Source: Ktedonobacterales bacterium (lineage in GTDB: Bacteria > Chloroflexota > Ktedonobacteria > Ktedonobacterales > JADMIN01). Taken from it: a stretch of DNA of 32,000 nt. The DNA is taken from NCBI GenBank assembly GCA_030167145.1, contig CP126532.1, positions 3,240,001 through 3,272,000 on the forward strand. The letters run 5' to 3'. The notes beneath the pieces are model-generated. The model was not told the DNA's origin and made no database searches. It saw only the letters and a list, made by a program, of their open reading frames with translations. Position 1 is the stretch's first letter. Each line of letters begins with the position of its first letter. This document shows positions 7,126-31,268 of this stretch, in pieces. Made by a program: the position numbers and the translations under genes.

Positions 7126-7712
7126 ATCCATCTGGCTGCTTATCTCACTCTCTCAAGGACGCGCACATGCTATTGAGAAATCGGCCATGTCGGCCATTGC
7201 ATACATCGGCCACATCGGCCACTGGTGGGGCAGACATTCCTGTCTGCCAGCACGTCATATCGGCAACTTCGGCAACTGTTATCCCGGCAAATCGCAAAAT
7301 CGGCAGAATCGGCAACTGTTACAATTCCAAATCGCGGCGAAAACGGCGAAAAATCTCCCGTCACCTTTGGCCATTCGCCCCCACCCAGCCACAAAACCGG
7401 CCATTTCGGCCACTGTGGCAACCTACACAATCCAAAAATCGGCAGAATCGGCAACTCCGGCGATTGGCATTTTCGCGAAATTGCGGCGAAAACGGCGAAA
7501 ATTGTCCAGCCATTTCCCGTCATTTCCCGTCACCTCTCCCACCCTCGCGCGCAAATCGGCAAAATCGGCAACTCGCATATCGGCCACCACCTGTCGACCT
7601 GGATTACCCGTGGCCTTCAGGCCGAGAACTCGCTTTACCATCCTCCCGCCCTCCACGCGCAAATCGGCAGAATCGGCAACTCAAGTGGGCGGACATTCCT
7701 GTCTGCCTATGC

Positions 7713-7800
7713 GGCCACATCGGCCACATCGGCCACATCGGCCACATCGGCCACATCGGCCACATCGGCCACATCGGCCACATCGGCCACATCGGCCACC
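7713..7800. repeat. tandem repeat (GGCCACATC) x9 perfect copies plus a partial copy
   Basis: Nine perfect 9-bp units span 7713-7793, followed by GGCCACC. This repeat explains the GHIGHIG / RPHRPH / ATSATS peptides in the ORF track. Confidence 0.95.
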
Positions 7801-7905
7801 ATCGCCTATCCAGGATTACCCGTGGGTCTTCAGCCCACGTCCTCGCCTTACGGCCCGGCGCGTCCATCCTGGCATTCATGCCCCGCGCCTGTGCTCCGGC
7901 CATGT

Positions 7906-7941
7906 ATGGCCGAGACCATGGCCGAGAGCATGGCCGAGAGC
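7906..7941. repeat. tandem 12-mer ATGGCCGAGAGC x3, abutting the palindrome CGGCCAT-GT-ATGGCCG
   Basis: ATGGCCGAGACC, ATGGCCGAGAGC, ATGGCCGAGAGC. The palindrome lies at 7897-7912. Confidence 0.9.
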
Positions 7942-8064
7942 GCCCGCCACAGCGCGAGTGATATACTCGAATACTGGCTCTTTATTGCCGCCGCCACCAC
8001 CAGCACGACTACATTCAGTAGTAGAGCGCCGCGCGCCAACACATCATCCACGGAGGAGGAAGAT

Positions 8065-9291: not shown

Positions 9292-9336
9292 CTATCTCTA
9301 TCAACCTGTGCCAATTCCCGCGAAAGGAGCGGAACC

Positions 9337-10383
9337 ATGCGTGACGTAGTAGATGACATCGAACGATGGCGAGCCTCTGGCGAGCGGGTCGCGCTGGCCA
9401 CCGTCGTCTCCGTCACCGGATCCGCGCCGCGCGGCATCGGAGCCATGCTTGCCGTCAGCGAGGGCGGCGAGATCAGCGGCTCCGTCAGCGGCGGCTGCGT
9501 CGAACCTGCCGTTATTGAAGAAGAACTGCGCACGCTGCGCGCCAGCCCTCCCAAGCTACTCCAGTTCGGCATCACCGAAGAACAGAACGTCGAACGCATC
9601 GGCCTCTCCTGCGGCGGCGAGATTCGCGTCTTCGTCGAGCGCATGGACGACGCCCACGAAGCGCTCGCGCAAGCGGTCCGCGCTGGGCAGCCAGCGGCCC
9701 TGGCGACGGTCATCGCCAGCGACTCTCCCCAGTTCTTGGGCAGAAAGCTGCTGGTGCGCGAGGACGGCCAGACACTCGGCAGCCTGGGCGAGCCATCGCT
9801 CGATGCCCTGGCCCTGGCGGACGCCACCGTCATGCTGCGCCAGGGTGCGTCCGGCACGCGACAATATCCGTCAGAATCCGGGCAATGCGAGATCTTTATT
9901 GACGTCCACGCGCCGCCACCTACCCTCATCATCGTCGGCGCGGGCCACGTCTCGATTCCCCTGGCGAAGCTGGCCAAGGTGCTCGGCTATCACGTCGTCG
10001 TCGTGGATGCTCGCGAAGCCTTCGCCACCCGCGAACGCCTGCCCGACGCCGACGAGCTGCTCGTCGAATGGCCCGACGAAGTGCTCGCGCGTCTGCCGCT
10101 CACCAGGGCCACCGCCATCGCCGTGCTCACCCACGACGACAAATTCGACGTGCCCGCGCTCGCCGTCGCGCTGCGCTCTAATGTCAGCTATGTCGGTGCC
10201 ATCGGCAGCCGTAGCACCCGTGAGCGGCGCGACGCGCGCCTGCGCGAAGCTGGCGTCACCGACGAGCAGATCGCCCGCATCCACGGCCCTATCGGCCTCG
10301 ACCTCGGCGCGCGTGTACCCGAAGAAATCGCGCTCGCTATCCTTGCCCAAATCGTCGCCGTCCGCAATGGGCGTGTCCCATGA
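9337..10383 (+). CDS. XdhC/CoxI family accessory protein (XdhC_CoxI N-domain plus Rossmann-like C-domain)
   Basis: N-terminus ...VALATVVSVTGSAPRGIGAMLAV...GSVSGGCVE. C-terminal half LIIVGAGHVSIPLAKLAKVLGYHVVVVD...YVGAIGSR. AAAGGAG precedes the ATG. Confidence 0.85.
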   Translation: MRDVVDDIERWRASGERVALATVVSVTGSAPRGIGAMLAVSEGGEISGSVSGGCVEPAVIEEELRTLRASPPKLLQFGITEEQNVERIGLSCGGEIRVFVERMDDAHEALAQAVRAGQPAALATVIASDSPQFLGRKLLVREDGQTLGSLGEPSLDALALADATVMLRQGASGTRQYPSESGQCEIFIDVHAPPPTLIIVGAGHVSIPLAKLAKVLGYHVVVVDAREAFATRERLPDADELLVEWPDEVLARLPLTRATAIAVLTHDDKFDVPALAVALRSNVSYVGAIGSRSTRERRDARLREAGVTDEQIARIHGPIGLDLGARVPEEIALAILAQIVAVRNGRVP

Positions 10384-10888: not shown

Positions 10889-11280
10889 AAATGGGCATGC
10901 GTTCTCGCTATTTCTTGACAGGTGTGTTAATGTAGCCACGATGATGTTTACGCGGTTCGCTTCAATAAGCGCGCCTCGTGGCAGCGCCATTCTGTGGCGG
11001 CGGCACAAGTCCAGCCTGAGAATCGGCTGCGGAATGGCATCGCGACAACCCACAATGGTGTGGCATCTCTTCTCTCCAATTGTTGGAGCCGGGGCCAGAG
11101 CCGCGCAATGAAGCGCCGCCGGAAGAGCCTGTGACAGCACAACTTGCGGCGCGCAATCATACGTGGATATCTATTCCCCCGGACGCGCAACCCAGTGGCG
11201 GATGATGTGTGGTTGGTAGGTGCTGGCATGAGTTGGCACGAGCGTATGGCTCTGATGTTGGATACAGGGAGTGTGATACG

Positions 11281-12051
11281 ATGGCCGCCCAATTTCTCAC
11301 GACGAGCAAACTCAACAACATCATAAGCATGATCTCTTTGGGCAGGCAAAGCGGTATCCTCAGAGTGATCCGTGGGCAAGGGCCAACACGAGAGATCGGG
11401 CAGATCAAATTTTCGGCAGGCGAGCCGGTCTCCGCGCTGTTGGGCCAGATGACCGGCGCAAATGCGATGACCGTCCTCAACAACTGGGGCGAATGCATCT
11501 ACGCCTTCGATGAGCAGGCCATCACCGATGCCGGTGAAGGCGAGATCTATGCTTCTGACCCTGGACGTTTCTCGCCCACCAGTGGCATCACCAGTGGCTC
11601 CTGGCCCACCTACATGTTCCCTGATGGCGCCCTTCCACAGTCGCCCTCCACCTCATACCCCTCAGGCTCCTATCCTACGCAAAACAGCGGCAGCATGCCA
11701 CCAGGCTACGCCGGCGGCTACAACGCGCCACCACCCAACAACGCCACCAGCGGTCCCGGTCGCGATACGCAATATAATATGAGTCGCCAGTACACGATGT
11801 CAGGCGTGCCGGTGCCGCAAGTCAGCGAGACCATTAGTCCCGAACTAATGGCGGCGTGCCCCCAGCGTACAATACTCTCGGAACAGGTGGAACAGCTTCC
11901 GTTGGATCGGCGCGAGCGCATGGTGCTGCTGCTAGTAGATGGCCGCCGGTCACTATCCGATCTGGCACGGCTGACCCGGCGCAACGAGCGCGAAGTCCTG
12001 GCCGTACTGGATCATATGGCGGGCCTCGGCCTGATCCATTTCAATGGCTGA
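11281..12051 (+). CDS. DUF4388 (PATAN) domain protein with a low-complexity linker and a C-terminal wHTH-like region
   Basis: N-terminus LNNIISMISLGRQSGILRVIRG...GQIKFSAGEPVSA...NWGECIYAF fits the DUF4388 pattern. A P/S/G/Y-rich linker follows. C-terminus RMVLLLVDGRRSLSDLARLT. Start moved from 11209 to ATG 11281. Confidence 0.7.
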   Translation: MAAQFLTTSKLNNIISMISLGRQSGILRVIRGQGPTREIGQIKFSAGEPVSALLGQMTGANAMTVLNNWGECIYAFDEQAITDAGEGEIYASDPGRFSPTSGITSGSWPTYMFPDGALPQSPSTSYPSGSYPTQNSGSMPPGYAGGYNAPPPNNATSGPGRDTQYNMSRQYTMSGVPVPQVSETISPELMAACPQRTILSEQVEQLPLDRRERMVLLLVDGRRSLSDLARLTRRNEREVLAVLDHMAGLGLIHFNG

Positions 12052-12232: not shown

Positions 12233-14173
12233 ATGTTTCCTAGATGGCGGCGTCTGGGCATTCGCCCACAGCTAACATTCATCGTGATCCTGGGAGCGAT
12301 CTTGAGCACTGTCGCTACCCTTTTCATCGCTGATAACGCAATTCAGAACTATGTGCTGGACCAGGCTCGAACCCAGGAACAGCAAAACATGAATATCATG
12401 CGGCTGGTATTGGAAACGCAGTACGGGCCGAATATCTCCATCGCCCATGACAACACCATGGTGGTTGACCAACCGAGCACCAGCCAGGGCACGTTTAGCT
12501 GCAATCCTAATGCCGCGCCGTCCACCCCCTGTTATGGGCGCTACGTACTCAACAACGATACCGACCTTGTTGACAACGTCCAGAATCTGATCGGCGGCAA
12601 CGTCTCGATCTTCCAATGCGCCAACGCCACCGGCAGCACCACCGGCTGCCTGCGCATTGCCACCACCTTTGGCAAAGGCAACTCCTCAGCAGGCACGTCC
12701 ACGCGCGCAACCGGTCAGCAATTGTGCCAGAGCGTCGCGCGCAATATGAACCTGGATGGCACACCGCGTGCCTGGCTTGGCACTGATACCTGCGATGGCG
12801 CGGCCTATTTCGCGAACTATGCCCCGCTCTTCAACCCCCAGGGCCAGTTTATCGGCGTGCTCTATGTCGGTGTTCCGCTCGACGTCATCACCACCGTCGT
12901 CAGCCGCACGACCATCGAACTGGTGGTCATCGGCTCGATCATCATGATCGCCGGAATCATCTTCGCGCTCTTCTTTGCTAACACCATCGTTGGCACACTC
13001 CAACGCGCCGCGCGACAAATCAGCGGCGCCTCCGAGCGCATGGGCGGCATCGCCGCACAGCAATCCAGTGGCGCGGCGCAGCAGGTCTGGGCCATCAACG
13101 CCATCAATCAGGCGCTCCAGAACTTCTCAGAGACCGCCAAAGATATCTCACATCGCACCGACCAGCTTGCGTTGATGGGCAATCAAGTCTTGCAGCGCCG
13201 CGCCGAGATCTCGCCCGCGCAGATAGACTCGATCCTCGCCTACATCACCCGTTCCGTGCGCGACATCAGCGTCGCCAGCAAGCAACAGTCAGTGCAGTAT
13301 GAGCGTATGACTGGGGCCATGCAGGCGGTCATCGAGATCGCCGAGCAGGTCGCGGGCAACTCGCAGCAAGCCTCTGAAAGCTCAGAGCGGCTGGAGTTGG
13401 TCGTCCGGCAGATGCGGCAGTTGGTGGGTGTGCGCCTGGGTGCGCGCAAGACCACCGAAGATGCCATGGCGATGGAACTGGCGGCAGAGATTGGCGCGCG
13501 GGCTGGTATCGGCGCCAACAGCCAGAACGACATGCGCGATGGCAAGCGTGCCCGCAGCCCCTTGCGCCGCAATGCTTCTGGCCCGGCAACGGGTGGCAAC
13601 GGTATGGGCAATCCCATGGGCGGCCCCGGTCAGATGATGTTCCCCGATGCGAGCGGCGTCGTCAACATGGGCGCCATGGGCGGTATGGGCAACATGAACA
13701 GCGCCGGGAATATGGGCGGCATGGGCAACATGGGTGGTATGGGTATGATGCCGCCGATGTCCGGCCCAATGCGAGACGCCGGTGGCCAGCGGCAAGACCG
13801 TGGCCTTATGCCCGCTCCGGTCGGCAATGGGTACGCTGGCGGCGGTGGCATGCCGAATATGCAGCCACCTAATAGCGGTCGTTTTGCCCCGCGTCCCGGC
13901 GGCGCGAATGGCATGCGCCCCGCGCCGAACGGCGGTGGCATGGGCAACTATGGGTATCAGCCCGGCGCGGCGCCTGGTGAGAACCCCTTCGCTGGCGGCG
14001 AAGATTGGCGATTGCCGCCATTGCCTCAGATGCCGCAATGGGGCGATAACAATGGACGCATGGGCGGTCCAAGCCAGGGATCGCGCGGCGGATGGGACCG
14101 CGATGGGCGCTCGTATGGCGGGCAAGATGCGTCGTATGATGGCGAGGGCTGGCCGCGCCTCCGAGGCGAATAG
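12233..14173 (+). CDS. transmembrane Cache-type sensor with a short, degenerate MCP-like coiled coil and a Gly/Met/Pro/Asn-rich tail of about 200 aa
   Basis: TM1 LTFIVILGAILSTVATLFI. Periplasmic sCache-like block VLNNDTDLVDNVQNLIGGNVSIFQ...YFANYAPLFNPQGQFIGVLYVGVP. TM2 IELVVIGSIIMIAGIIFALFF. MCP-like heptads follow (AAQQSSGAAQQV..., SKQQSVQYERMTGAMQAVIEIAEQVAGNSQQASESSERL), but the conserved tip EAARAGE-GRGFAVVA is absent. The tail (13580-14170) reads GGMGNMNSAGNMGGMGNMGGMGMMPPM. Confidence 0.7.
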   Translation: MFPRWRRLGIRPQLTFIVILGAILSTVATLFIADNAIQNYVLDQARTQEQQNMNIMRLVLETQYGPNISIAHDNTMVVDQPSTSQGTFSCNPNAAPSTPCYGRYVLNNDTDLVDNVQNLIGGNVSIFQCANATGSTTGCLRIATTFGKGNSSAGTSTRATGQQLCQSVARNMNLDGTPRAWLGTDTCDGAAYFANYAPLFNPQGQFIGVLYVGVPLDVITTVVSRTTIELVVIGSIIMIAGIIFALFFANTIVGTLQRAARQISGASERMGGIAAQQSSGAAQQVWAINAINQALQNFSETAKDISHRTDQLALMGNQVLQRRAEISPAQIDSILAYITRSVRDISVASKQQSVQYERMTGAMQAVIEIAEQVAGNSQQASESSERLELVVRQMRQLVGVRLGARKTTEDAMAMELAAEIGARAGIGANSQNDMRDGKRARSPLRRNASGPATGGNGMGNPMGGPGQMMFPDASGVVNMGAMGGMGNMNSAGNMGGMGNMGGMGMMPPMSGPMRDAGGQRQDRGLMPAPVGNGYAGGGGMPNMQPPNSGRFAPRPGGANGMRPAPNGGGMGNYGYQPGAAPGENPFAGGEDWRLPPLPQMPQWGDNNGRMGGPSQGSRGGWDRDGRSYGGQDASYDGEGWPRLRGE

Positions 14174-20479: not shown

Positions 20480-21829
20480 TTATGGCATACCTCTGGGCGT
20501 CGTAGGCACTGAGAAGGCATAGAACTTCTCATCCATGTTGCTCCCGTAATTGAAGACGCTTAGGTAAATCGCGCCATTTATCACTACTGGCGTCGAATCA
20601 ATAAGCCCGCCGGTGGCATACGTCCACAGTGGATTACATGTGCTGCTGCCACAGCCTGCTGCCTTAAAGGCGTAGAGCGTTCCATAGCTGGAACCAAAGT
20701 ATACGACGCCATTTGCAACCGACAGCGAGGAGGTGATGCCTTCATATTGTGCGGACACATGACCCGTCCAAGTCGGGGAGCAGGTCGCGCTGCCGCACCC
20801 TGCTGCTGGGAATGCATCGAGATTGCCGTCATCGGTACCCACATACAGGAGGCCATTCGCAACAGCAAGTGACCATGCATGGACCGTTCCGGCACTCGCT
20901 TGCCACAGTGGGGAGCAGGTCGCGCTGCCACAGCCGGCGGCAGAGTAGGCGAAGATCGTGCCATCTTCAGCACCTTCATAGACGATACCGTTCGCGATGG
21001 TCGGCGCGCTATCGCCACTTCCAGTGCTGGTCCAGAGCAGTGCGCCCGTGCTCGCATTGAACGCATAGAGTACATCAGCTCCTACATACACGACACCGTT
21101 CGCTAGTGCCGGTGCCCTGAAGAATGCGACACCAGCATTGAGCGGGGTACTCCAGAGCAGTGCGCCAGTCGTGGCGTTGTAGGCAGCGATGTTCGATCTG
21201 AAATTCGCGCCGACATAAATGACACCGTTTGCCACCATTGGATCGACTGCCTGGAAATTCTGGAGATAGACCTTCCACAGCGGGGCACAGGTCATCGCGC
21301 CACAGCCAGCGGCGTTGAAGGCATAGAGGTAGCCATCGCTCGCGGTGAAGTACAGGACACCGTTCACCACCGCAGGGGTGGAAATGCTGCTCCCCGAGGT
21401 CACGCTCGCACCCCAGCGTAACGCACCCGTCGCGGCGTCAAGTGCGTAGAATGTTCCGTTATCAGTTTCAGCGTAAGCGTTGCCACTTACCACAGCGAAC
21501 GACGCCGAACTCGGCACATCAGTCTCATCAGCCCACTTGACCGCTAGCTGCGAGACATTCCACGTTCCAATGGTGCGCTCGTAGGGATTGTAGCCAGTGT
21601 GCTGCGGCGAAAAGCCGAATTGCGACCATGTGCGTGGAAGGTATGGCACGCTCATCAGGGTACTCTGCTGCTGGCTGGCGGCTGCGCCACCGCGGCCGGA
21701 TGTGCTCGCGAGCCGCGTGGAGAGAGGGCTGGCCGCTGTCGCTTGTGCCGCGACTGGCAACGCACAGGCACCGATCACAACGCATAAAAGTGCGATGGCC
21801 ACTACATGTCGTATCATTCGCCGAATCAC
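20480..21829 (-). CDS. secreted PQQ-like beta-propeller repeat protein
   Basis: GTG start 7 nt after GGAGGAG. Signal peptide VVAIALLCVVIGACALPVAAQA. Repeated blades (NGVVYVG..DG.LYAF.A.TGALLW). The motif AAGCGxxTCxPLW occurs four times. Confidence 0.8.
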   Translation of the reverse strand: MIRRMIRHVVAIALLCVVIGACALPVAAQATAASPLSTRLASTSGRGGAAASQQQSTLMSVPYLPRTWSQFGFSPQHTGYNPYERTIGTWNVSQLAVKWADETDVPSSASFAVVSGNAYAETDNGTFYALDAATGALRWGASVTSGSSISTPAVVNGVLYFTASDGYLYAFNAAGCGAMTCAPLWKVYLQNFQAVDPMVANGVIYVGANFRSNIAAYNATTGALLWSTPLNAGVAFFRAPALANGVVYVGADVLYAFNASTGALLWTSTGSGDSAPTIANGIVYEGAEDGTIFAYSAAGCGSATCSPLWQASAGTVHAWSLAVANGLLYVGTDDGNLDAFPAAGCGSATCSPTWTGHVSAQYEGITSSLSVANGVVYFGSSYGTLYAFKAAGCGSSTCNPLWTYATGGLIDSTPVVINGAIYLSVFNYGSNMDEKFYAFSVPTTPRGMP

Positions 21830-22030: not shown

Positions 22031-22246
22031 CTACACTATGGGGTGCGGCAACGGCTCGTTGTGCTTACGAGCTGAAGCGATCAGGGCTTCCAGAGCTTTG
22101 CGTCCGCGCTGGATGGCCTGTTCGCAGGTGTTACTGCGGCTCACTGGCCCAAGCACGCGCTTGGCCCATTCTGGAAGGGTGACAAGATAGGTGTGGTCTT
22201 CATCGGACCATTGGATCAACATTGAGTAGTGTGGAGTGTCGCTCAT
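22031..22246 (-). CDS. HicB-like (UPF0150 / RNase H-like fold) small protein
   Basis: YSMLIQWSDEDHTYLVTLPEW...AIQRGRKALEALIASARKHNEPLPHP follows the short HicB-family pattern. The usual PGC.THG.T.EEA segment is replaced by GPVSRSNTCEQA. The ATG overlaps the upstream stop (ATGA). Confidence 0.6.
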   Translation of the reverse strand: MSDTPHYSMLIQWSDEDHTYLVTLPEWAKRVLGPVSRSNTCEQAIQRGRKALEALIASARKHNEPLPHPIV

Positions 22247-22716
22247 GGTTGTTCCCGCCTTCGCAGCCGATATAAGCCCAGTATCAAGACGACGATGCTA
22301 CACAATACAGCAATCATCATGAATGAACCTACCCATGCACCCACCGTGAGGTTAAGCCAAGACCTTCCACCCGCATCCGACAAGCACAGACAAGGATGTA
22401 CTGATGCACCGGAATATGCAGCGAAGAGAAGGCCGAACACGATGACCAGCACAGGGGCACACAATGCCAACATGAACAGATAGGCGCTGTATCCATTACC
22501 CGTTATCAGGTTGAGGATCTCATCTCGATGCGGGCCGTGTTCCCACTTCCAGAAGATCCGCACCACCGTCAACACGATGCCCAGGGCTACGAGTGGGACA
22601 TAGATACGCTTATCCTGAGTGAGCGCCAGCCCTCCTGCCGTGGCGATGCCTATAACACTGCTGCCGGCGAGTATGACCCACTGGATTTTTTGTGGCGGAG
22701 TCACGGCCATCGTCAC
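22243..22716 (-). CDS. integral membrane protein (4-5 TM), low GC, hypothetical
   Basis: 157 aa with hydrophobic helices IQWVILAGSSVIGIATAGGLAL, IYVPLVALGIVLTVVRIFW, YLFMLALCAPVLVIVFGLLFAAY and VGAWVGSFMMIAVLCSIVVLILGLY. A 60-nt sample gave 47% GC. Confidence 0.6.
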   Translation of the reverse strand: MTMAVTPPQKIQWVILAGSSVIGIATAGGLALTQDKRIYVPLVALGIVLTVVRIFWKWEHGPHRDEILNLITGNGYSAYLFMLALCAPVLVIVFGLLFAAYSGASVHPCLCLSDAGGRSWLNLTVGAWVGSFMMIAVLCSIVVLILGLYRLRRREQP

Positions 22717-22741: not shown

Positions 22742-23542
22742 CTACCGCGCCAACGCGGCGGGCGTGGGGCGGTCGGTGGTGGGCAGGCCGAGGCGGCGCA
22801 GCATGACGTTGTGGGCCTGCCATTCCAGGTCGTCGGGCAGGGGGGTGAGAGCGGCAGGCGCGGATTCGCCACGGGCATGCGCGAGGGCGAGCGCGATGAT
22901 GCGGTCGGCTAGATGGGGGTTTTTGGGCAGCAGCGAACCGTGCAGATAGGTGCCATAGGCGTTCTTGTAGATCACGCCTTCGGTCTTGTCTTCGCTGTTG
23001 TTGCCGTGGCCCGCGAGCACACGCCCCAGCGGCGTGGCGCGTTCGCCCAGGTAGGTGCGGCCGCCGTGGTTCTCGAAGCCGACGAGGGTGGCGCCCTCCC
23101 AACTGAGGGCGACGTTGCCGATGCAGCGCGCGACCTGCTTGCCCTTGTGGATGGTCCAGGCGTCGAAGAGGCCGATGCCGGGGAGTTCTTCGCCCTCGGC
23201 GTCGCGATAGTAGTGGCAGAGCAGTTGATAGCCGCCACAGACCGCGAGCAGCGGCGTACCAGCGTCTATCGCCGCGCGCACGTTCGCGGCCTTCACGTCG
23301 CGCATATCACGGGCGACCTCGCCCTGCTCTTTGTCCTGGCCGCCGCCGATGAAGAAGAGATCGTAGGCGTCCGGGTCCACGGCATCGCCGACATCCAGCG
23401 GGAAGACGCGCAGGGTGATGCCGCGCCACTGGCAGCGTTGGGTGAGCGTGATGATGTTGCCACGGTCGCCGTAGACATTGAGCTGGTCGGGGTAGAGGTG
23501 CGCGAGCCGTATCACAGGCGCGGTGGGCGTGGTGTCATTCAT
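22742..23542 (-). CDS. gatD: lipid II isoglutaminyl synthase, glutaminase subunit (CobQ-type GATase)
   Basis: LYPDQLNVYGDRGN, FFIGGGQD, catalytic LAVCGGYQLL and YLHGSLLPKNP. Start set at ATG 23542 (MNDTTP), overlapping the murT stop by 8 nt. Confidence 0.85.
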   Translation of the reverse strand: MNDTTPTAPVIRLAHLYPDQLNVYGDRGNIITLTQRCQWRGITLRVFPLDVGDAVDPDAYDLFFIGGGQDKEQGEVARDMRDVKAANVRAAIDAGTPLLAVCGGYQLLCHYYRDAEGEELPGIGLFDAWTIHKGKQVARCIGNVALSWEGATLVGFENHGGRTYLGERATPLGRVLAGHGNNSEDKTEGVIYKNAYGTYLHGSLLPKNPHLADRIIALALAHARGESAPAALTPLPDDLEWQAHNVMLRRLGLPTTDRPTPAALAR

Positions 23543-25067
23543 CCTGCTGCTCCCAATATTGCGGTGTGTAGCCGCGATGCGCCAGTTCGCCACGGATGGC
23601 GAGCATCGCGGTATAGGTGGGCACGATGTAGAGCGTGCTTCCGGAGGGGGTGTGTTCGAGGGCGTGGGTCAGCGCGCGCCCGAAATCTGGCTCGATGTGC
23701 TGCGGCGGCTGGCCGGTGTACTTCAGGCGCAGGGCGAGGTCGTAGGCGCGGGTGCCGGTGGTGGTGACGTAGGCGGCGATGCCAGGGACACGCTCGTAGT
23801 CGGCGTCCCAGATCCATGAGACGTCTTCGCCGTCCGCCGCTTTGTCGCTAAGGGCGAGCAGCAGATGATGCCTGCCCTCCATCATACCCAGCGCGCGCAG
23901 CACTTCGTTGAGGCCGGTGGGGTTCTTTGCCAGCAGCAGTTGCACGGTCTTGTCGCCGACGGCGATGCGCTCGGCGCGGCCAAACGCGGGGCGGAAGCGC
24001 GCGATAGCCTCGCGGATGCGGGGGGTCTCGGCGCCGACGGTGACGCCGACGGCGGCGGCGGCGAGCGCGTTGTAGACGTTGTAGAGGCCGGGGAGTTCGA
24101 CCCGCGCTTCGGTGACGCCCGCTGGCGTTTCGAGTTGGAAGACCGTGCCAGCGAGGGCGTCTGGATGGATGCCGCGCGCGCGCACGAGCGGGTCGGGGCG
24201 GCGATAGCCGCAGGATGGGCAGGACCAGTGGCCGATGTGGCTGTAGAAGCGCTGCGAGAACTCTAGCACGGCATGGCAGCGGGCGCAGGTGCGCGTGTCA
24301 ATCACCTCGGCGCAGTCGCCTGGCTCGCGGCCCGCCGTGACGATGGGCGCTTCCTCCACGCCGTAGTAGACGACGGGCGCTTCGCGGTCGCTATCGGCGA
24401 GGGCGGCGACGGCGGGGTCGTCGGCGTTGAGGATCAGCGTGGTGGTGGGGGGCAGCTTGCTGAGCGCGAGCCGCCACTTTTCGGCGACGGTATCTACTTC
24501 GCCGTAGCGGTCAAGCTGGTCGCGGAAGAGGTTGGTGATGACGATGGCACGCGGCTGGAGCGCGGCGACGACCGCCGGGAATGCGGCTTCGTCCACCTCG
24601 AAGACGGCGGAGGCGTCGCCACCGCCGCGCAGCTTGCCGTCTGGGCGGGCGCGAATGAGCAGCGATGTGGCGACGCCGCGCATCAGGTTCGAGCCTTCGC
24701 GATTGCGCCAGACGCGATGCCCGGCGGCGCGCAGCACTTCGGTGACCAACCCGCTGGTGGTGGTTTTGCCGTTGGTGCCGGTGACGACGATGGACCCCTG
24801 ACGCAGTTGGGCGCCCAGATAGGCGGGCAAGCCCGGATCAATGCGCAGCGCGACCAGCCCCGGCAGGCTGGTGCCGCCACCCAGGCGCAGCCGCCGCGAG
24901 AGCACCCCGGTCGCGCGGCCAGCGGCTACGGCAAGCGCCGCACGGGTGCGGCTATGGCGCGGACGCGCGATGGCGCGCAACGAGCCGGAGGTGTCGGGAC
25001 GGCGCGAGACGCCGCTGGCGCTGGCTGTGCCGGGCGCAGGTGGCCGTGTGTCGGGGGTGTTCGTCAC
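23535..25067 (-). CDS. murT: lipid II isoglutaminyl synthase, Mur-ligase-type subunit
   Basis: P-loop VVTGTNGKTTTSGL. Cys4 ribbon CARCH...CPSCG. C-terminal DUF1727-like region DVSWIWDADYE. GTG 25067 shares GTGA with the cheA stop, and GGAG lies upstream. An alternative TTG start at 24979 cannot be excluded. Confidence 0.85.
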   Translation of the reverse strand: MTNTPDTRPPAPGTASASGVSRRPDTSGSLRAIARPRHSRTRAALAVAAGRATGVLSRRLRLGGGTSLPGLVALRIDPGLPAYLGAQLRQGSIVVTGTNGKTTTSGLVTEVLRAAGHRVWRNREGSNLMRGVATSLLIRARPDGKLRGGGDASAVFEVDEAAFPAVVAALQPRAIVITNLFRDQLDRYGEVDTVAEKWRLALSKLPPTTTLILNADDPAVAALADSDREAPVVYYGVEEAPIVTAGREPGDCAEVIDTRTCARCHAVLEFSQRFYSHIGHWSCPSCGYRRPDPLVRARGIHPDALAGTVFQLETPAGVTEARVELPGLYNVYNALAAAAVGVTVGAETPRIREAIARFRPAFGRAERIAVGDKTVQLLLAKNPTGLNEVLRALGMMEGRHHLLLALSDKAADGEDVSWIWDADYERVPGIAAYVTTTGTRAYDLALRLKYTGQPPQHIEPDFGRALTHALEHTPSGSTLYIVPTYTAMLAIRGELAHRGYTPQYWEQQDE

Positions 25068-27916
25068 GGTAGGTTCTCCACCGGCGCATCCAGCGCCGTC
25101 CGAATCGTTTCCAGCAGGGTTTCCTGCGGGCAGGGCTTGATGAGATAGGCTGCCGCGCCCAACGCGCTGGCATGCGCGCGATGCTTGTCGGCGGCGCGCG
25201 AGGTGAGCATGATGGTGCGCACCCCGGCAAGCTGCGGCGTGCCGCGCATGATGGCGAGCAACTCGAAGCCGTCTAGCCGGGGCATCTCGATGTCGAGCAC
25301 CATCACCTGTGGCGGGTTGACGAGCATCAACTCCAGCGCCTCGATGCCATCGCGCGCAAGCTGCACGTCGTAGCCTGCGTGGGTGAGTGTCAGTTCCAGC
25401 GATTTGCGGATCGAGATGGAATCATCCACGACCAGCACATGTGGCCCATGCGCCGCCGCTGGTGTTGGCGGGCGGGCACGGCGGATGGGCCGCGCGGAAT
25501 GGCGTTCGCTGGTCGCCGCCAGCAGCACGCCGGCATCCAACAGCAGCAGCAGATCGCCACGCGCGGTCACAGTTGCGCCCTGCACGACACGCCGCCGCAG
25601 GTGCTTCGGCAACGCCTGAATGAGCATCTCCCGTTCATCCAGAATAGCATCTACGAGCAGAACACAGCGCGTTCGGTCCATCTCGACGAGCAGCGCCGCC
25701 TGGGGATTTGTGGGCTGCTGCTCGAAACCGAGCAGGTGGGCAAGGTAGTACGCAGGTACTTCCTCATAGAGCGTGCCACTGGAAACGACTTGATTGAGGG
25801 ACGGGCCGCCCACTTGCTCGCGTTCCATACGCACGCGCAGCGAGAGGATGTCGGTTGCGCCTGGGGGCGCGTCGGGCGCGGCGCGGGTGACCGAGGTGAG
25901 CAGTTCGGCGGGGGTGAGCGAGAGCATGCGACGCATGGCGGTGAAGGGCAGCGCGTAGACTTGCTCGCCCGCCTGCACCTGGAGCGCGCGCACAACGCTG
26001 AGCGAGATGGGCACACGAATGCGGAAGGTTGTGCCTTGATCTGGCTCGCTGTGGACTTCGATGCTGCCCTTCAAGCGGCGGATGGTGGCGCGCACTTCGT
26101 CCATGCCCATGCCGCGCCCGCCGATCACCTGGGCTTCGGCATAGGTGGAGACGCCGGGCAGGAACATCAGATCGAGCGCGTCGGCGACGGTCAGGGAGCG
26201 GGCCGCGTCGCCATCCAGCAAATTGTTGGCGACGGCTGAGGCGGCAAGCCGGTGGGCATTGACACCACGACCATCATCGCCGAGTTCGATCACCACTTCG
26301 TCGCCATTGGCAAAGGCGCGCAAGGTGAGTGTCGCGTCGGTGGGCTTGCCGATCTCGCGCCGCTCGTCGGGCGGCTCGATGCCGTGGATGAGGGCGTTGC
26401 GCACCAGTTGGATCAGCGGCTCGCGCAGGGCATCGCTGATGTTGCGATCAATCTCGGTGAGTTCGCCCGCGACGGTGAACGAGACCTGCTTTTTGAGCAT
26501 GCCCGCCAGCCGCCGAACCTCGACGCGCAGACGAAGGGCCAGCGGTTCCAGCGACACCAGCCGCATCCGCAACACGTCATGCTGGATGCTTTCAGTCAGC
26601 GCGGCTTGCTGCTCGGCGGTCTGGCCGAGGGCGCTGGTGCGTTCGCGCAGGGTGCGCCCGGCGGTGCGGACATCATCCACGGCTTCGGAGAGGGCGCGAC
26701 AGGCGGTGTCGAATTCGCTATAGCGTTCGAGTTCGAGGGCATCGTGCGCGGATTTGTGGGGGTCGTCGGCCAATTGGCGGGTGAGCCGCGCGAAGAAGGG
26801 GCGCTTGGGAGCGGATTGGTCGGCGCTGGCAGCGGAGGAGGGAGGGTCGGCGCTGACGGGCGAGAGCAATGCTGGAGGCTGGCTGTCGGTAATCTGGCTG
26901 CTGAGCGTGGCGACCCGCGCGAGGAGTTGTTCTAGCTCGGCCTGAAGGCGGGCGATCTCGTCGCGTGTGCGCAGGAGCGCGGCGCGGCCAAGCGTGAGCT
27001 GGCTGACACGGTTCATCAGAGCATCCACGCGCCGGACCTCGACCTGAAGCGGTGTGTCGTCGGTGTTTCTGGCGGTGAGCGCGACTTCGCTGATCTCTGG
27101 GGGCAGTGAGGGGATAGATTGTTCGCTGGTGAGCGCTGGTGGCTCTGGCTCGGCGGGCTGCGGGCGCACGCCGTCCGCCCCTACAGGCGCGGTGAGCAGC
27201 AGCGCGGCGAGCAATTCGTCGGCTCGCGCGGGCAGCGTGGGGTCGGCGTCGCGTTCGGCGGAGGCGGCGCTGAGCGCGGCTTGGAGCAGGTCCAGGCAGG
27301 CGAAGAGGGTGGCGATGGCGGCTGGCCCAGCGGCGACACGGCGGGTTTTGATCGCTTTCAGCACGTCCTCGAAGGTGAGCGCCAGTTGGGCCAGGGTGTC
27401 GAAGCCGAGGATGCCGGCTGTGCCTTTGACGCGATGCGCCACGCGCTCCATATCCAGCAGCGCCGCGCGGTTGTCGGGCCGCTGCTCAAGCGCGAGGCAG
27501 CCGCTGTGCAGGCGTTCGAGTTCCTCGGCGGCCTCGATGACGAAGAGCCGACGCATGGCGGGGGGAATGTAGTCGAGATCGTCGCTGGTCAGTGGGGTGG
27601 CGGGGGTTGCGGGCCGTGTGGTGGGCGTAGGGGATGGCTCGCGGAGAATGGGCTGCGTCGCGCCGGTGTCGAACATGGTGAGTGGCGGGCTGTTCTCGCC
27701 TGCGGCGGTGGTGTCGAAGTCAGCGCCGGGAGCGGGCGCGGGCGATGGCGTGTCCGCAGTGGGCGTGTCGCTTTGGAATGCGGCGATCATCGCCAGTTCT
27801 TCGTCGGTGAGGGGCTGGTCGTCTTGCGCGATGGTTTCCTCGAAGGCTGCCAGCATTTCTTCGTCGGTGAGGGGCCGGGTAAAGACCGGCGCGGGCCGCT
27901 GATCCTGGTCATCCAC
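25064..27916 (-). CDS. cheA: CheA-type histidine kinase fused to a C-terminal receiver (Hpt, dimerisation, HATPase_c, CheW-like, REC)
   Basis: Hpt RVAHRVKGTAGILGF. Dimerisation region VRRVDALMNRVSQL. N-box LIQLVRNALIHGIE. G1 LGDDGRGV. G2 GGRGMGMDEV. CheW-like segment ALQVQAGEQVYALPF. REC VLVVDDS...VLDIEMP...IMLTS...YLIKP. GTG start lies 2 nt after the cheW stop. Confidence 0.9.
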   Translation of the reverse strand: MDDQDQRPAPVFTRPLTDEEMLAAFEETIAQDDQPLTDEELAMIAAFQSDTPTADTPSPAPAPGADFDTTAAGENSPPLTMFDTGATQPILREPSPTPTTRPATPATPLTSDDLDYIPPAMRRLFVIEAAEELERLHSGCLALEQRPDNRAALLDMERVAHRVKGTAGILGFDTLAQLALTFEDVLKAIKTRRVAAGPAAIATLFACLDLLQAALSAASAERDADPTLPARADELLAALLLTAPVGADGVRPQPAEPEPPALTSEQSIPSLPPEISEVALTARNTDDTPLQVEVRRVDALMNRVSQLTLGRAALLRTRDEIARLQAELEQLLARVATLSSQITDSQPPALLSPVSADPPSSAASADQSAPKRPFFARLTRQLADDPHKSAHDALELERYSEFDTACRALSEAVDDVRTAGRTLRERTSALGQTAEQQAALTESIQHDVLRMRLVSLEPLALRLRVEVRRLAGMLKKQVSFTVAGELTEIDRNISDALREPLIQLVRNALIHGIEPPDERREIGKPTDATLTLRAFANGDEVVIELGDDGRGVNAHRLAASAVANNLLDGDAARSLTVADALDLMFLPGVSTYAEAQVIGGRGMGMDEVRATIRRLKGSIEVHSEPDQGTTFRIRVPISLSVVRALQVQAGEQVYALPFTAMRRMLSLTPAELLTSVTRAAPDAPPGATDILSLRVRMEREQVGGPSLNQVVSSGTLYEEVPAYYLAHLLGFEQQPTNPQAALLVEMDRTRCVLLVDAILDEREMLIQALPKHLRRRVVQGATVTARGDLLLLLDAGVLLAATSERHSARPIRRARPPTPAAAHGPHVLVVDDSISIRKSLELTLTHAGYDVQLARDGIEALELMLVNPPQVMVLDIEMPRLDGFELLAIMRGTPQLAGVRTIMLTSRAADKHRAHASALGAAAYLIKPCPQETLLETIRTALDAPVENLP

Positions 27917-27918
27917 GG

Positions 27919-28539
27919 TTAGCCGTCCCTTTCTTCCAGTGCCAGGAGCAGGTCGTCGAGCAGGTGGCGCGCGTTGAGGATGATGTGTCGCTGTCCGCCG
28001 TCGGCGGGGGTGTAGAGTCCGGCGTAATAGCGGTCGGCGATAGATGCGGTGAGCGGTGGGTCGCGTAGAATTTCGTCATCGCGCACCAGCGTGATGGCGC
28101 CGACTCGTTCGACGGCCCAGCCGAGGGTATGCTCGCCGTCGCCGACGAGAATGGTGGCGGTGGGAGGGGGGTCGCCGTTGCTGGGGGCCGATGCGCCGAG
28201 CAGCAGTGGGGCGGGGTCCACCAGGCCGAGGAGTTCGGCGCGCAGGGCAAAGAGTCCGAACATCCAGGGCGGCGTGTGGGGCAGCGGGATGGTGGCGGGG
28301 ACGGTGGGTAGCACTTCGCGCATGGTTTCAAGCGTGACGGCGCAGGCGAGCGTCATACAGGTGAAGAGGAGATAGTGCGCGCCCAGGGGCGGCTCTAGCT
28401 CTGCGGCTTCTGCCTGGGCCAGACGCATCAGGTAGCGTTCGGCGGCATCCAGCGGGCGCGTTTGGTCGCCGGGCGCTAGTGGCGCTGCCGCATCGGGCGC
28501 GACGCGCCAGGCTGGCAGGTCGAAGGACGTATCGCTCAC
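27919..28539 (-). CDS. cheW: CheW-like coupling protein
   Basis: YLLFTCMTLACAVTLETMREVL...LPHTPPWMFGLFALRAELLGLVD...ILVGDGEHTLGWAVERVGAI is a CheW-domain pattern. GTG start follows AGAGGGGA. Confidence 0.75.
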   Translation of the reverse strand: MSDTSFDLPAWRVAPDAAAPLAPGDQTRPLDAAERYLMRLAQAEAAELEPPLGAHYLLFTCMTLACAVTLETMREVLPTVPATIPLPHTPPWMFGLFALRAELLGLVDPAPLLLGASAPSNGDPPPTATILVGDGEHTLGWAVERVGAITLVRDDEILRDPPLTASIADRYYAGLYTPADGGQRHIILNARHLLDDLLLALEERDG

Positions 28540-28632
28540 ACCGTCTGTCCCCTCTGTTGTCGCGGCGAATGGACGTGAGTTGGGCGCGCAACCGCCGGTT
28601 GCCCGGCGCGCATCGCAGGGTTACGCGCAGGG

Positions 28633-29088
28633 CTACGCGGGCGGCAGATCCACTGGCGGGGGAACAGGGATGCCCAATTGCTCGCATACCTCGCGGATGA
28701 CCTCTTTGATACGGAACGGCTTTTTGATATAGGCGCTGGCGCGGATGCGCAGGCTGTTCACGTGATCTATCACACCGTTGTGGGCGGTGAGCATGATGAT
28801 CTTCATATCGCTGAACTTCTGGTTGGCGCGGATGATCTGCGCGACCTGATAGCCATTCATGCGCGGCAGGCCGATGTCGAGCAGGAGCAGCGCGGGCGCT
28901 GGAATGTCGTCGGAGGAGAAGGCGCGGATCATCGAAATGCCTTCGGGGAAGGCTAAGACGCGGATACCATGACGCCCGAAGCCGAACTCGATGATTTTGC
29001 GCACCGAGGGCGAATCGTCAATGACCATAATCACCGGCAGCACCCCTGCTGCGATTGTCTGACTGTGTGCTGACTCAGCCGGAGACAT
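28633..29088 (-). CDS. single-domain response regulator (CheY-like receiver)
   Basis: VIMVIDDSPSVRK, LLLLDIGLPRMNG, IIMLTAH and YIKKPF supply the Asp pocket, phospho-Asp, Thr and Lys. Start moved to ATG 29088, 7 nt after GGGGAGGAAA. Confidence 0.85.
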   Translation of the reverse strand: MSPAESAHSQTIAAGVLPVIMVIDDSPSVRKIIEFGFGRHGIRVLAFPEGISMIRAFSSDDIPAPALLLLDIGLPRMNGYQVAQIIRANQKFSDMKIIMLTAHNGVIDHVNSLRIRASAYIKKPFRIKEVIREVCEQLGIPVPPPVDLPPA

Positions 29089-29117
29089 ACTCGTGTTTCC
29101 TCCCCACATCTCATCTT

Positions 29118-29166
29118 GCATCTGCACGTACACGCTCGCTATCTCCTACACCTGCATCTCCTACAC
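29118..29166 (-). promoter_or_regulatory. three direct repeats GTGTAsGwG(c)AGATGCA upstream of the CheY-like gene (candidate operator or internal promoter)
   Basis: Plus strand: ATCTCCTACAC at 29141-29151 and 29156-29166 (15-nt period), plus a degenerate copy CATCTGCACGTACAC at 29118-29133. The repeats lie 30-80 nt upstream of ATG 29088. Confidence 0.3.
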
Positions 29167-29254
29167 ATGTGAACGACTTGCGCTGTGTGATGCGCGCTCT
29201 CGAATTATAACGCTCGACGGCACGCACCCTATGCCAATCGGCTACTCATCCCAA

Positions 29255-30508
29255 CTACTCGCCCATGTCGTTCTCACCACGAATGGTCATCAGCAGCGCT
29301 TCCCACGCTTCGCGATTCTGCTGGCGTTCCAGTGGCAGCGCCACACGCGCGTTGATGGCCTCGAATGCGGCGACGAGCGCGCTCTGGAGCACGGTGCTAC
29401 AGCGGTCGTAGATGAGCTTGGTATTGCCGAGCGAGCCACGTGTGGCGTTGTTCAGGGCGTCGCGGCAATAGCTGGTGAAGTCATCTACATCAATCTGGTT
29501 GTTGGCGATGCGGAAGCGATAGGAGTCTACGCCGAAGAGGCCGCGCTGCGCGAGCAGGGTGTTGAGGGTGTCGGGCGCGAGGCTCAGGCCGCCTTCGCGG
29601 CAGGCGTCTTCGAGCGCTTTCATCGTCTGGTTGATGAAGCTGGCGAGCGCGCTGAGTTGATCCAGCGGCGTTTTGCGTTTCAGCCAGTCTTGCTCCATGC
29701 TGATGAGCAGCGAGAAGAGGTCGAAGTGGCGCATACTGAGGCGCACGGCTTCGGGGGGCAGGCCAGGGCGGCCCGCCGCGCCGATGGCGATGAGCAATCC
29801 CTGCTGCACAAATGGGCCGATCTGCCGCGCGATCTCGACCTCTGGGTGGCGGAGCGAGGTGGCGACGCGGCGCACGGTGTGATGCTCGTTGACGCGGGCG
29901 ATCAGCCGCCAGTCCGTCGCTGAGAAGCGCAGCGGGTGGCCGGGCATCGGCTCGCGGGCCATGGCGAGGTGGGTGCGCATGCCATCGGGGAGGAAGGGTT
30001 GGAGGGTTTCCCATTCGTGCTCGTAGCGCAGGACTTCCATCATGGCGGGGGTGGTCTCGATGTGGATGCCGGTGCTATGGGCGGGCAGACGTTCGTCGGC
30101 GTGAAATTCGTAGCTGCCTTCGCGCCAGAGCGCCAGTTCGCGGACGGTCCAGAGGGTTTGGGTTTTGAGGGCGTGAACGAGATGTTCGGGGCTGATGATG
30201 CCGAGGTCTACGAGTCGCTCGCCGATGCGGGGGCCAAGGGGATCTTGCGTTTGCAGGTGGTAGGCGTGATCGAGATGTTCTGGTCCAGCGAGGTTGAGTT
30301 GTTGGAGCACATGGCCGAGGGTGAGCGCTTCGGTATCGAGTTCGACGCAACTGACCAGCCCGCCGTTATCGAAGTAGACAATGCCCGATTGGCCGGAGTC
30401 ATGGTGTATGTGCAGAGCGCCGGTGTTTGAGCCAAGCCCCATCATTTGGAGCAGTTCAACCAACCGGAACTCTTCGAGCCGGCCATTCAGTACATTGTGT
30501 GCTGCCAC
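29255..30508 (-). CDS. DUF4388 (PATAN) domain protein with a T2SSE_N / MshEN-like repeat
   Basis: N-terminus LEEFRLVELLQMMGLGSNTGALHIHHDSGQSGIVYFDNGGLV fits DUF4388. Residues 94-117, RIGERLVDLGIISPEHLVHALKTQ, fit the 24-residue MshEN motif, and a degenerate copy lies at residues 63-86. GTG start follows GAGGG. Confidence 0.75.
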   Translation of the reverse strand: MAAHNVLNGRLEEFRLVELLQMMGLGSNTGALHIHHDSGQSGIVYFDNGGLVSCVELDTEALTLGHVLQQLNLAGPEHLDHAYHLQTQDPLGPRIGERLVDLGIISPEHLVHALKTQTLWTVRELALWREGSYEFHADERLPAHSTGIHIETTPAMMEVLRYEHEWETLQPFLPDGMRTHLAMAREPMPGHPLRFSATDWRLIARVNEHHTVRRVATSLRHPEVEIARQIGPFVQQGLLIAIGAAGRPGLPPEAVRLSMRHFDLFSLLISMEQDWLKRKTPLDQLSALASFINQTMKALEDACREGGLSLAPDTLNTLLAQRGLFGVDSYRFRIANNQIDVDDFTSYCRDALNNATRGSLGNTKLIYDRCSTVLQSALVAAFEAINARVALPLERQQNREAWEALLMTIRGENDMGE

Positions 30509-30758: not shown

Positions 30759-31268
30759 TCAGAACAAGTGGCCGCACTGCGTCACATCGGCTGGTGGCAG
30801 CGCGCGTGCCAGTTCGGCCACCGTGGTGTCGAGCGCGGGATGGCGCAGATCGGGGGCGATTTCGGCGAGGGGCGCCAGCACGAAGGCGCGCTCGGCGATG
30901 CGGGGATGGGGGATATGCAGCTCAGGCGTATCCAGGATTAGGTCATCGTAGAAGAGGAGGTCAATGTCTACGACGCGCGGCCCATAACGGATGCCTGGTG
31001 TGCGCCCGACCGCCGCCTCCACGGCTTTGGCGTGGCGCAGCAGCGCGAGCGGGGTGAGGGTGGTGTGGCCGATACAGGCGATATTGTGGAAACGCGGTTG
31101 CGCGGTGACGAGCATTGGCGCGGTGTCATAGATCGCGGAAACACGCGCGATGGTGACGGCCGGGGCGAGATGCGCCAGCGCGGCGCGCAGGTTGGCGTCG
31201 CGGTCGCCCAGGTTGCTGCCCAGCCCCAGTGCGACGGTGTGGGTATGCGCCGCTTCGTCCTCGTGCAT
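30759..31268 (-). CDS. folK: 2-amino-4-hydroxy-6-hydroxymethyldihydropteridine pyrophosphokinase (HPPK)
   Basis: VALGLGSNLGDR, YDTAPM, RYGPRVVDIDLLFYDD, LHIPHPRIAERAFVLAPL. GGAAAGGAG lies upstream of ATG 31268. Confidence 0.9.
   Translation of the reverse strand: MHEDEAAHTHTVALGLGSNLGDRDANLRAALAHLAPAVTIARVSAIYDTAPMLVTAQPRFHNIACIGHTTLTPLALLRHAKAVEAAVGRTPGIRYGPRVVDIDLLFYDDLILDTPELHIPHPRIAERAFVLAPLAEIAPDLRHPALDTTVAELARALPPADVTQCGHLF

Follow-up and report, generated by a model that had tools for sequence, protein, structure and literature searches.

The stretch analyzed here, the window, comprises 32,000 nucleotides of contig CP126532.1 (GCA_030167145.1, positions 3,240,001 to 3,272,000) from a Ktedonobacterales bacterium, and its minus strand carries, from position 30508 to 22742, six co-directional genes that join a chemosensory (Che-like) module to the murT-gatD pair of lipid II amidation. 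In the order of reading, they encode a PATAN (DUF4388) protein (29255 to 30508; 417 aa; Pfam DUF4388, E = 1.3e-23), a stand-alone CheY-like receiver (REC; 28633 to 29088; Response_reg, E = 5.9e-20), a CheW-like coupling protein (27919 to 28539; 206 aa; CheW, E = 1.4e-12), a hybrid CheA-REC kinase (25064 to 27916; 950 aa; Hpt, HATPase_c, CheW, and Response_reg), MurT, the ligase subunit of lipid II isoglutaminyl synthase (23535 to 25067; 510 aa from the GTG at 25067; Mur_ligase_M and MurT_C), and GatD, its glutaminase subunit (22742 to 23542; 266 aa from the ATG at 23542; GATase_3, E = 1e-38). The start of the REC gene is more likely the ATG at 29088, which has GGGAGGA 9 nt upstream and is also the JGI call, and gives a protein of 151 aa, not 166. 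Gene order and domains agree with a preliminary description of the locus, which went on to propose that cell-wall stem-peptide chemistry is co-regulated with, or is an output of, a Che-like phosphorelay. That description saw no gene for a methyl-accepting chemotaxis protein (MCP), CheR, CheB, flagella, or pili in the operon, and none turned up among the larger open reading frames (ORFs) of the window scanned with Pfam.

The tight junctions that had been reported between cheW and cheA, cheA and murT, and murT and gatD can be read directly from the sequence. The TAA of cheW is followed after two nucleotides by the GTG of cheA at 27916 (TAA-cc-GTG). The TGA of cheA and the GTG of murT share the four letters GTGA (25067-25064), 8 nt downstream of a GGAG (25079-25076) lying within the 3' end of cheA, and this cheA/murT junction as a whole spans positions 25064 to 25079. 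At its TGA, murT overlaps gatD, which begins at the ATG at 23542, by 8 nt. An ATGA or GTGA overlap of 4 nt joins cheA to murT in 22 of 30 relatives, and in 5 more the murT start lies 4 to 7 nt past the cheA stop; a GGAG, GAGG, or AGGA motif stands 5 to 14 nt upstream of the murT start, in the last cheA codons, in 22 of 28 loci; and the cheW-cheA and murT-gatD spacings of the relatives are mostly overlaps of 8 nt. A 4-nt overlap that is conserved and preceded by a GGAG is classic for translational coupling, which is what this junction points to.

The JGI gene call starts murT at a TTG (24980-24978; the preliminary description, which raised this start as an alternative, gave 24979). This candidate was rejected on the comparative data, which favor the GTG at 25067: relatives keep the overlapping start, and in several of them (L004, L011, L014, L016, and L022) it is the only start codon before the conserved MurT core. 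Read from GTG 25067, the window MurT is extended at its N terminus by about 36 residues of low complexity. Among the relatives, the peptide between the overlapping start and the core measures 25 to 45 residues, abounds in Pro, Ser, Thr, and Arg, and shows no sequence conservation. The MurTs of three Ktedonobacterales loci without che linkage (L027, L030, and L032) start about 10 aa ahead of the core, with a Shine-Dalgarno (SD) sequence of their own. An overlapping start followed by an unconserved bridge peptide is as expected from the capture of a start codon after murT had lost its own promoter and SD. In one subclade (L012 and L024), the cheA-murT overlap has been lost, the genes are still adjacent, and promoter-like boxes are found in the gap, which is 136 nt long with a TACAAT in L012 and consists in L024 of a 656-nt repeat-bearing insert with a TATAAT. 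This L024 insert (about 650 nt, 9200-9890), with its direct repeats (GGCGCGGTTTCAACCGCC... / GGCCCCTCGTTCCGCGGCCGC) and TATAAT box, appears to be a small repeat element that broke the coupling of cheA and murT in that metagenome-assembled genome (MAG).

MurT and GatD look like genuine subunits of lipid II isoglutaminyl synthase, with the amidation of D-iso-Glu as their predicted reaction. MurT matches Mur_ligase_M (E = 2.2e-20) and MurT_C (DUF1727; E = 6.1e-29) and aligns over its full length with Streptococcus pneumoniae MurT (6FQB; E = 4e-68), with conservation of the P-loop TGTNGKT, of the Cys4 ribbon (CxxC...CxxC), and of the ADGxDxSWIWDAD motif ("aadgedvswiwdadye" against "yadgidtswiwdadfe" in 6FQB). 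GatD aligns with the GatD structure 9SQ9 (E = 5.6e-51), including the catalytic Cys (avCGGyQLL) and His (ylHG). The best NCBIfam models are isoglutsynth_MurT (E = 2.6e-76; 257 bits) and isoglutsynth_GatD (E = 7.9e-61; 206 bits); these scores fall under the equivalog cut-offs of 800 and 400, which are strict and tuned on Firmicutes and Actinobacteria, and the two families score best by far. The ADGxD motif of MurT completes the active site of GatD, and amidated lipid II is required for efficient transpeptidation. The murT-gatD pair is essential where tested and encodes a drug-targeted enzyme in Gram-positive pathogens; to our knowledge, little is known of how its expression is controlled.

The linkage of the two gene sets was surveyed from both ends. 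A MurT-seeded scan restricted to one genome per species yielded 80 loci, which were searched by tblastn with the window proteins. The order HPPK-PATAN-REC-CheW-CheA-MurT-GatD was found, as far as the contigs extend, in 30 of the 33 Ktedonobacterales loci, and che genes were near murT in none of the 47 loci from Dehalococcoidia, Chloroflexia, Solirubrobacterales, and other groups. The converse, PATAN-seeded scan of metagenomes gave 13 informative loci, defined by a PATAN identity of at least 50% and enough downstream DNA, and in 11 of them CheA is directly followed by MurT-GatD. In the other two (L113 and L119), and in L135 with a PATAN identity of 46%, the che module is followed by unrelated genes, and a more distant PATAN tier (42 to 46% identity) has no che genes at all. 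The gene-neighborhood survey that the preliminary description had called for thus found the che-murT linkage conserved. Relatives with the same gene order and overlapping junctions share 36 to 53% identity in CheA and 54 to 67% in MurT, and since this arrangement recurs in dozens of such divergent genomes, the linkage is not a matter of chance. MurT and PATAN served as the queries for finding relatives, since a word-indexed homologue search with CheA gave too little: one identical JGI protein (sample 3300045419), then matches of at most 31% identity.

The linked loci fall into one clade, which includes the GTDB family JADMIN01, in the PATAN tree and in the MurT tree alike. In the former, the che-only loci lie outside this clade; in the latter, the unlinked Ktedonobacterales murT genes (L027, L030, and L032) are its sister. 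The simplest reading of these trees would be one fusion event, vertically inherited within one family. The close relatives are all MAGs labeled Ktedonobacterales, and two of them, L006 (JAICVS01) and L014 (JAKAIY01), are namesakes of GTDB genera in the uncultured family JADMIN01 (PMC13374853 supplement). Among the 120 matches listed for each of the PATAN and MurT searches, no cultured strain with the fusion was found, and the named sources are all MAGs. No MAG is represented twice among the 80 loci, and hence no second murT copy per genome was seen. Synteny extends upstream of the block to a 189-aa ORF and to hemA on the other strand, and stops right after gatD.

Two observations on the neighborhood of the PATAN gene stand apart from the linkage. 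In L092 (576-4207), a PATAN nested in the che and murT clade is followed by a gene for 1-deoxy-D-xylulose-5-phosphate synthase, not by che genes, and is not preceded by a TATAAT; rearrangement, paralogy, or misassembly may account for this. The PATAN-family gene also adjoins pterin or folate genes in both tiers. In the che-linked tier, HPPK (folK; 30759-31268 in the window) lies upstream of it; in the che-less tier (L121-L161, e.g., L126 7357-9787), its neighbors are a divergent short-chain dehydrogenase/reductase gene, 6-pyruvoyl-tetrahydropterin synthase, and a GT4 glycosyltransferase. This neighborhood may reflect ancestral synteny or be a functional hint.

A proposed operon promoter of near-consensus sigma-70 type precedes the PATAN gene of the window, with a -35-like TTGTTC (30767-30762) lying across the final codons and stop codon of the HPPK gene upstream, a 17-nt spacer, and a TATAAT (30744-30739) situated 230 nt upstream of the PATAN start. 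In all 52 loci that hold both HPPK and PATAN, a perfect TATAAT is found just past or over the HPPK stop, with a TTGnnn 16 to 18 nt upstream of it. Of all 104 loci with upstream sequence, the distant che-less tier included, 98 have an exact TATAAT ahead of the PATAN-family gene, and 4 of the remaining 6 are contigs cut at their 5' end. The same hexamer is rare downstream: it occurs in 2 of 60 loci in the gap between PATAN and REC, in 0 of 42 between REC and CheW, and in 1 of 42 in the last 400 nt of cheA and the murT leader. On the minus strand of the window, no promoter-like or terminator-like site was seen between the genes of the block, and none resembling a terminator past gatD. A strong promoter or terminator between cheA and murT, which would have argued against linked expression, was looked for; no clade-wide promoter-like site emerged, and no terminator-like site in the window. 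The three unlinked Ktedonobacterales murT-gatD pairs (L027, L030, and L032) sit after a divergent gene and have a promoter-like region of their own, in which two of the three share a GATACT box resembling a -10 element. Rfam detected no RNA family or riboswitch in the leader at gathering thresholds. HPPK was considered as a functional member of the operon, which is unnecessary, the conserved promoter lying after or over its stop. The promoter is unusual in itself, as a perfect -10 and a non-consensus TTGTT -35 (cTTGTTn-17-TATAAT) are conserved even before the PATAN-family gene of distant, lower-GC, che-less relatives; a regulator site or a dedicated sigma factor might lie behind this.

These data bear on the idea that adjacency is all there is. 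In that case, a murT-gatD promoter would be embedded in the 3' coding region of cheA, the overlapping murT start would be used independently of cheA translation, and the gene order would be a frozen accident. Since murT-gatD is essential where tested, an independent supply might be expected; L012 and L024 show that promoters can arise at this junction; and a weak CTGACG-18-TATCAT does lie within cheA in one subclade (6 of 42 loci). Against this stand the contrast in TATAAT counts between the cheA end and the PATAN upstream region, the lack of any promoter-like site in the cheA 3' end of the window itself, and the conserved overlap with its GGAG. We regard this reading as very unlikely.

The explanation that we favor and find probable is a family-specific operon fusion, in which murT-gatD is tied to the che genes by co-expression rather than by phospho-control. 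A single transcription unit of all six genes, from PATAN to gatD, appears well supported and is the best reading given the conserved promoter upstream of PATAN, the lack of a clade-wide internal site, and the gene overlaps. The translational coupling of murT-gatD to the che genes appears equally well supported by the conserved junction. The co-regulation envisaged in the preliminary description thus receives strong comparative support. We infer the following course of events. A che module without a receptor gene (PATAN, REC, CheW, and CheA-REC), apparently widespread in Ktedonobacteria, would be transcribed from the TTGTTC-17-TATAAT promoter just before the PATAN gene. In the ancestor of one clade, including JADMIN01, a housekeeping murT-gatD would have been placed directly behind cheA and would then have lost its own promoter and ribosome-binding site, murT gaining a start that overlaps the cheA stop, with an SD-like GGAG within the last cheA codons. 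Ribosomes ending cheA would reinitiate on murT, and those ending murT would reinitiate on gatD. How much of the lipid II amidation enzyme is made would thereby depend on the expression and translation of the che genes.

The transcription unit possibly has a genome-specific tail, as a membrane-protein ORF of 155 aa (22243 to 22710, minus strand; no Pfam family) begins 31 nt past gatD; it has no counterpart 3' of gatD in relatives. At its end (22243-22246), this ORF shares an ATGA, as stop and start, with a small ORF of 63 to 71 aa (MSDTPHYSMLIQWSDEDHTYLV...), likewise without a Pfam match, and the pair is not conserved among relatives.

The che module itself has kept its catalytic and phospho-acceptor residues. 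The kinase combines an Hpt domain with its His161 (27436-27434), a HATPase, a CheW-like P5 domain, and a C-terminal REC with Asp875 (25294-25292); its dimerization domain is detected at a score below the Pfam cut-off (H-kinase_dim, E = 0.0076, 17.1 bits against 23), and NCBIfam CheA models match at 1e-76, also below their cut-offs. The Hpt His is present in 27 of 27 relatives, and the N-box Asn, the G1 Asp, the REC Asp, and the REC Lys of the kinase are each present in 45 of 45. The phospho-acceptor Asp of the stand-alone receiver (28878-28876) is kept in 59 of 59 aligned relatives. Because the Hpt His, N-box Asn, G1 Asp, and receiver Asps are retained in every aligned relative, the phosphorelay is under selection.

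A tblastn probe with the signaling domain of Tsr found no MCP in the window, nor within 10 kb of the fetching PATAN or murT gene of any che locus. As a positive control, the same probe detected an MCP-like ORF in the unrelated locus L027. This ORF (3035-3391, minus strand), about 7 kb upstream of an unlinked murT, holds the only MCP-like signaling domain in any fetched locus, and as L027 is a Ktedonobacterales MAG, MCPs do exist in the order. We considered whether a 646-aa membrane protein encoded in the window (12233-14173, plus strand), whose single-Cache domain is accompanied by a long Gly-, Met-, Asn-, and Pro-rich tail, could be the missing receptor. This candidate was rejected: neither MCPsignal, at E values up to 10, nor the Tsr probe matches it, and synteny in relatives does not include it. 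It follows the gene of a second, weakly DUF4388-like protein (11209-12051, plus strand; E = 4.7e-4) with a winged-helix-like C-terminal end. Given that no MCP is encoded nearby, the input of the che module is likely intracellular.

Cultured Ktedonobacteria are non-motile filaments. The kinase has been named ChpA by JGI, and the module might be a chemosensory system of the type IV pilus (Tfp) class, with pilus polarity as its output through PATAN and with murT-gatD as a passenger. The set CheA-REC, PATAN, CheY-like REC, and CheW resembles PixG/H/I/L, and the PATAN domains of Synechocystis PATAN-REC regulators are reported to bind the pilus motor (bioRxiv 10.1101/2021.06.11.447907). A broad presence of type IV pilus genes is reported for family JADMIN01 (PMC13374853). 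This view has to contend with the lack of a PilJ/PixJ-type MCP within the 10 kb searched, with the lack of any pil gene among the larger window ORFs scanned with Pfam, and with a PATAN that is not fused to a REC. In addition, the ChpA group of KEGG Orthology is found in ~99-100% of the genomes of all three Ktedonobacteria families, including Ktedonobacteraceae, a family reported to be largely devoid of type IV pilus genes (PMC13374853). The che module may thus be class-wide in Ktedonobacteria and not strictly tied to pili, and we hold a Tfp-class role with murT-gatD as a passenger to be unlikely.

Of the che-module proteins in the block, PATAN is conserved best (50 to 68% identity), and its domain is interrupted. 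The DUF4388 match spans 159 residues for 122 profile positions (PF14332), i.e., there is an insertion, and in an AlphaFold2 model (predicted local distance difference test score 86.5) the helices of residues 64-126 are inserted among strands at 7-58, 131-136, and 179-183. The PATAN sheet is followed in the model by a winged-helix-like segment and a C-terminal helical bundle; no PDB fold match was obtained for the whole protein or its C-terminal half. Residues 63-119 (30152 to 30322) match NCBIfam NF053729, "c-di-GMP_motif," at 8.6e-8 (31.9 bits, below the cut-off of 38), and the PATAN family profile matches the MshE N-domain (5HTL; E = 3.6e-4) and PilF (6F8L; E = 1.9e-4). The MshEN consensus consists of two tandem 24-residue motifs, RLGxxhhxxGhhxxxxLxxxLxxQ, with a 5-residue spacer (PMC5013675). 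Motif II of the PATAN protein (RIGERLVDLGIISPEHLVHALKTQ) fits the published 24-residue motif fully; motif I (TLGHVLQQLNLAGPEHLDHAYHLQ) is degenerate (TLG...), failing positions 1, 7, and 10 of the relaxed motif, and its Arg is absent. Our hypothesis is that the PATAN protein could sense cyclic di-GMP (c-di-GMP) at this candidate binding site, and c-di-GMP is possibly the input of the che module.

The stronger half of the original proposal was that MurT/GatD is a functional partner or an output of the Che-like pathway, the phosphorelay tuning the activity, localization, or amount of the enzyme. The iso-Gln content and cross-linking of the wall would then be set during growth or differentiation, perhaps via PATAN and c-di-GMP. 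It would make sense of a block that has remained unbroken throughout a deep clade, with CheA identities as low as 36%, as its downstream flanks were replaced, and of an adjacency that outlasts the overlap in L012 and L024. The need for amidated lipid II in efficient transpeptidation fits it as well. The near-universal ChpA, including in the pilus-poor Ktedonobacteraceae, would suit a role outside motility (PMC13374853), and the PATAN protein PatA of Anabaena is reported to interact with the divisome (PMC7380572). However, sister lineages (L113, L119, and L135) have the che module without murT-gatD and without a cell-wall theme among its neighbors, murT-gatD stands alone elsewhere in Ktedonobacterales, and the L012/L024 subclade has re-separated cheA from murT. 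Moreover, the low-complexity, unconserved MurT extension offers no evident docking motif, and neither Pfam nor the alignments to solved structures revealed a REC-regulated domain fused to MurT or GatD. On balance, we doubt that MurT/GatD is an output of the pathway. The most specific form of the idea, in which a receptor-less, possibly c-di-GMP-sensing phosphorelay directly governs lipid II amidation, with phospho-REC, phospho-CheA, or PATAN binding or positioning MurT/GatD, seems to us more improbable still.

Several points nonetheless weigh against a fusion by co-expression alone. The persistence of adjacency in L012 and L024 without the overlap means that an overlap acting as a lock does not by itself explain retention. 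The block has been kept order-wide as the DNA 3' of gatD was scrambled, which could mean selection for a functional tie. The weak box inside cheA in one subclade counts here too, and the promoter search covered only the sigma-70 consensus, so that a promoter of another type may lie within cheA. Finally, the PATAN and MurT trees that suggest a single origin are neighbor-joining trees without support values. We still consider a fusion tied by co-expression the best account of the locus.

Two further genes of the window deserve mention. A beta-propeller protein of the pyrroloquinoline quinone-like type (20480-21829, minus strand) has four two-cysteine motifs, AAGCG(S/A)xTCxP(L/T)W, spaced along its blades. 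A 688-aa ORF (7225-9291, plus strand) contains a deoxyhypusine-synthase-like domain (E = 4.5e-77) in residues 344-634 only, and has either a long N-terminal extension or an over-called start.

A whole bacterial family appears to make MurT/GatD only as the translationally coupled tail of a signaling operon. If the tie is functional, Che-like "alternative function" pathways would gain a new type of output, cell-wall chemistry; and if direct control by the phosphorelay were true, this would be the first Che-type pathway with an effector that modifies a peptidoglycan precursor, and wall cross-linking would be a signaling output. If the tie is co-expression only, the locus would still be a clean and datable case of operon fusion, in which murT lost its promoter and SD, captured an overlapping upstream start, and gained an unconserved "bridge" peptide at its N terminus. 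The locus would also provide a way into a Che module that seems to be nearly universal in Ktedonobacteria. It corrects the start of murT given in public gene calls, and the PATAN protein with its MshEN-like insertion and the strikingly conserved promoter are separate leads. A search of a literature library found no paper that treats MurT, GatD, and chemosensory genes together and, for alternative Che-like functions and peptidoglycan, nothing comparable, in line with the earlier statement that no Che-like pathway is known with peptidoglycan amidation as a partner.

Compared with known systems, the murT-gatD part is conventional in its enzymes and exceptional in its setting. As in Staphylococcus aureus, S. 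pneumoniae, and Mycobacterium tuberculosis, the two genes form an adjacent, overlapping pair, with the same Mur-ligase P-loop, Cys4 ribbon, MurT_C with ADGxD, and GatD Cys and His. In these species, as in other Chloroflexota and in the unlinked Ktedonobacterales, no che genes precede murT-gatD, whereas the pair of the window follows cheA, lacks a promoter-like region of its own, and, unlike S. aureus-type operons, has a MurT extended at its N terminus back to the cheA stop.

The che part comes closest to Pil-Chp of Pseudomonas aeruginosa and to Tax1 (PixG-PixL) of Synechocystis, in which the same set of a hybrid CheA with a C-terminal receiver, CheW, a CheY-like REC, and a PATAN protein is clustered, and cyanobacterial Tfp-class systems likewise lack CheB and CheR. 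It differs from both in having no nearby MCP (PilJ/PixJ), no adjacent pil genes, and only one detected Hpt, and in the appended murT-gatD, which the sequence suggests to be translationally coupled. Its PATAN protein, in contrast to the PatA/PixG type, carries no fused receiver (Pfam detects DUF4388 and no Response_reg) and has instead, in the model, the winged-helix-like segment and helical bundle. The inserted module resembles the MshEN domains of Vibrio cholerae MshE and Thermus thermophilus PilF in its two tandem 24-residue helical-hairpin motifs, the second an exact fit, but its spacer has 7 residues rather than 5, its first motif misses the Arg plus two further positions of the consensus, and the module forms a helical insertion of a PATAN domain, not the N terminus of a secretion ATPase.

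Finally, in Wsp, Dif, Che3/CrdA of Myxococcus xanthus, and Che3 of Rhodospirillum centenum, as here, Che proteins probably serve a non-motor role with an output outside the canonical Che set. In those pathways, an MCP is present and the co-encoded output is a signaling or regulatory protein, such as a diguanylate cyclase or an NtrC-like regulator, whereas in the window no receptor is encoded nearby and the partner is a pair of peptidoglycan-precursor enzymes. All parts of the locus come from known families; what is new is that they are fused in a conserved way, apparently without a receptor, and that the PATAN protein carries an MshEN-like insertion.

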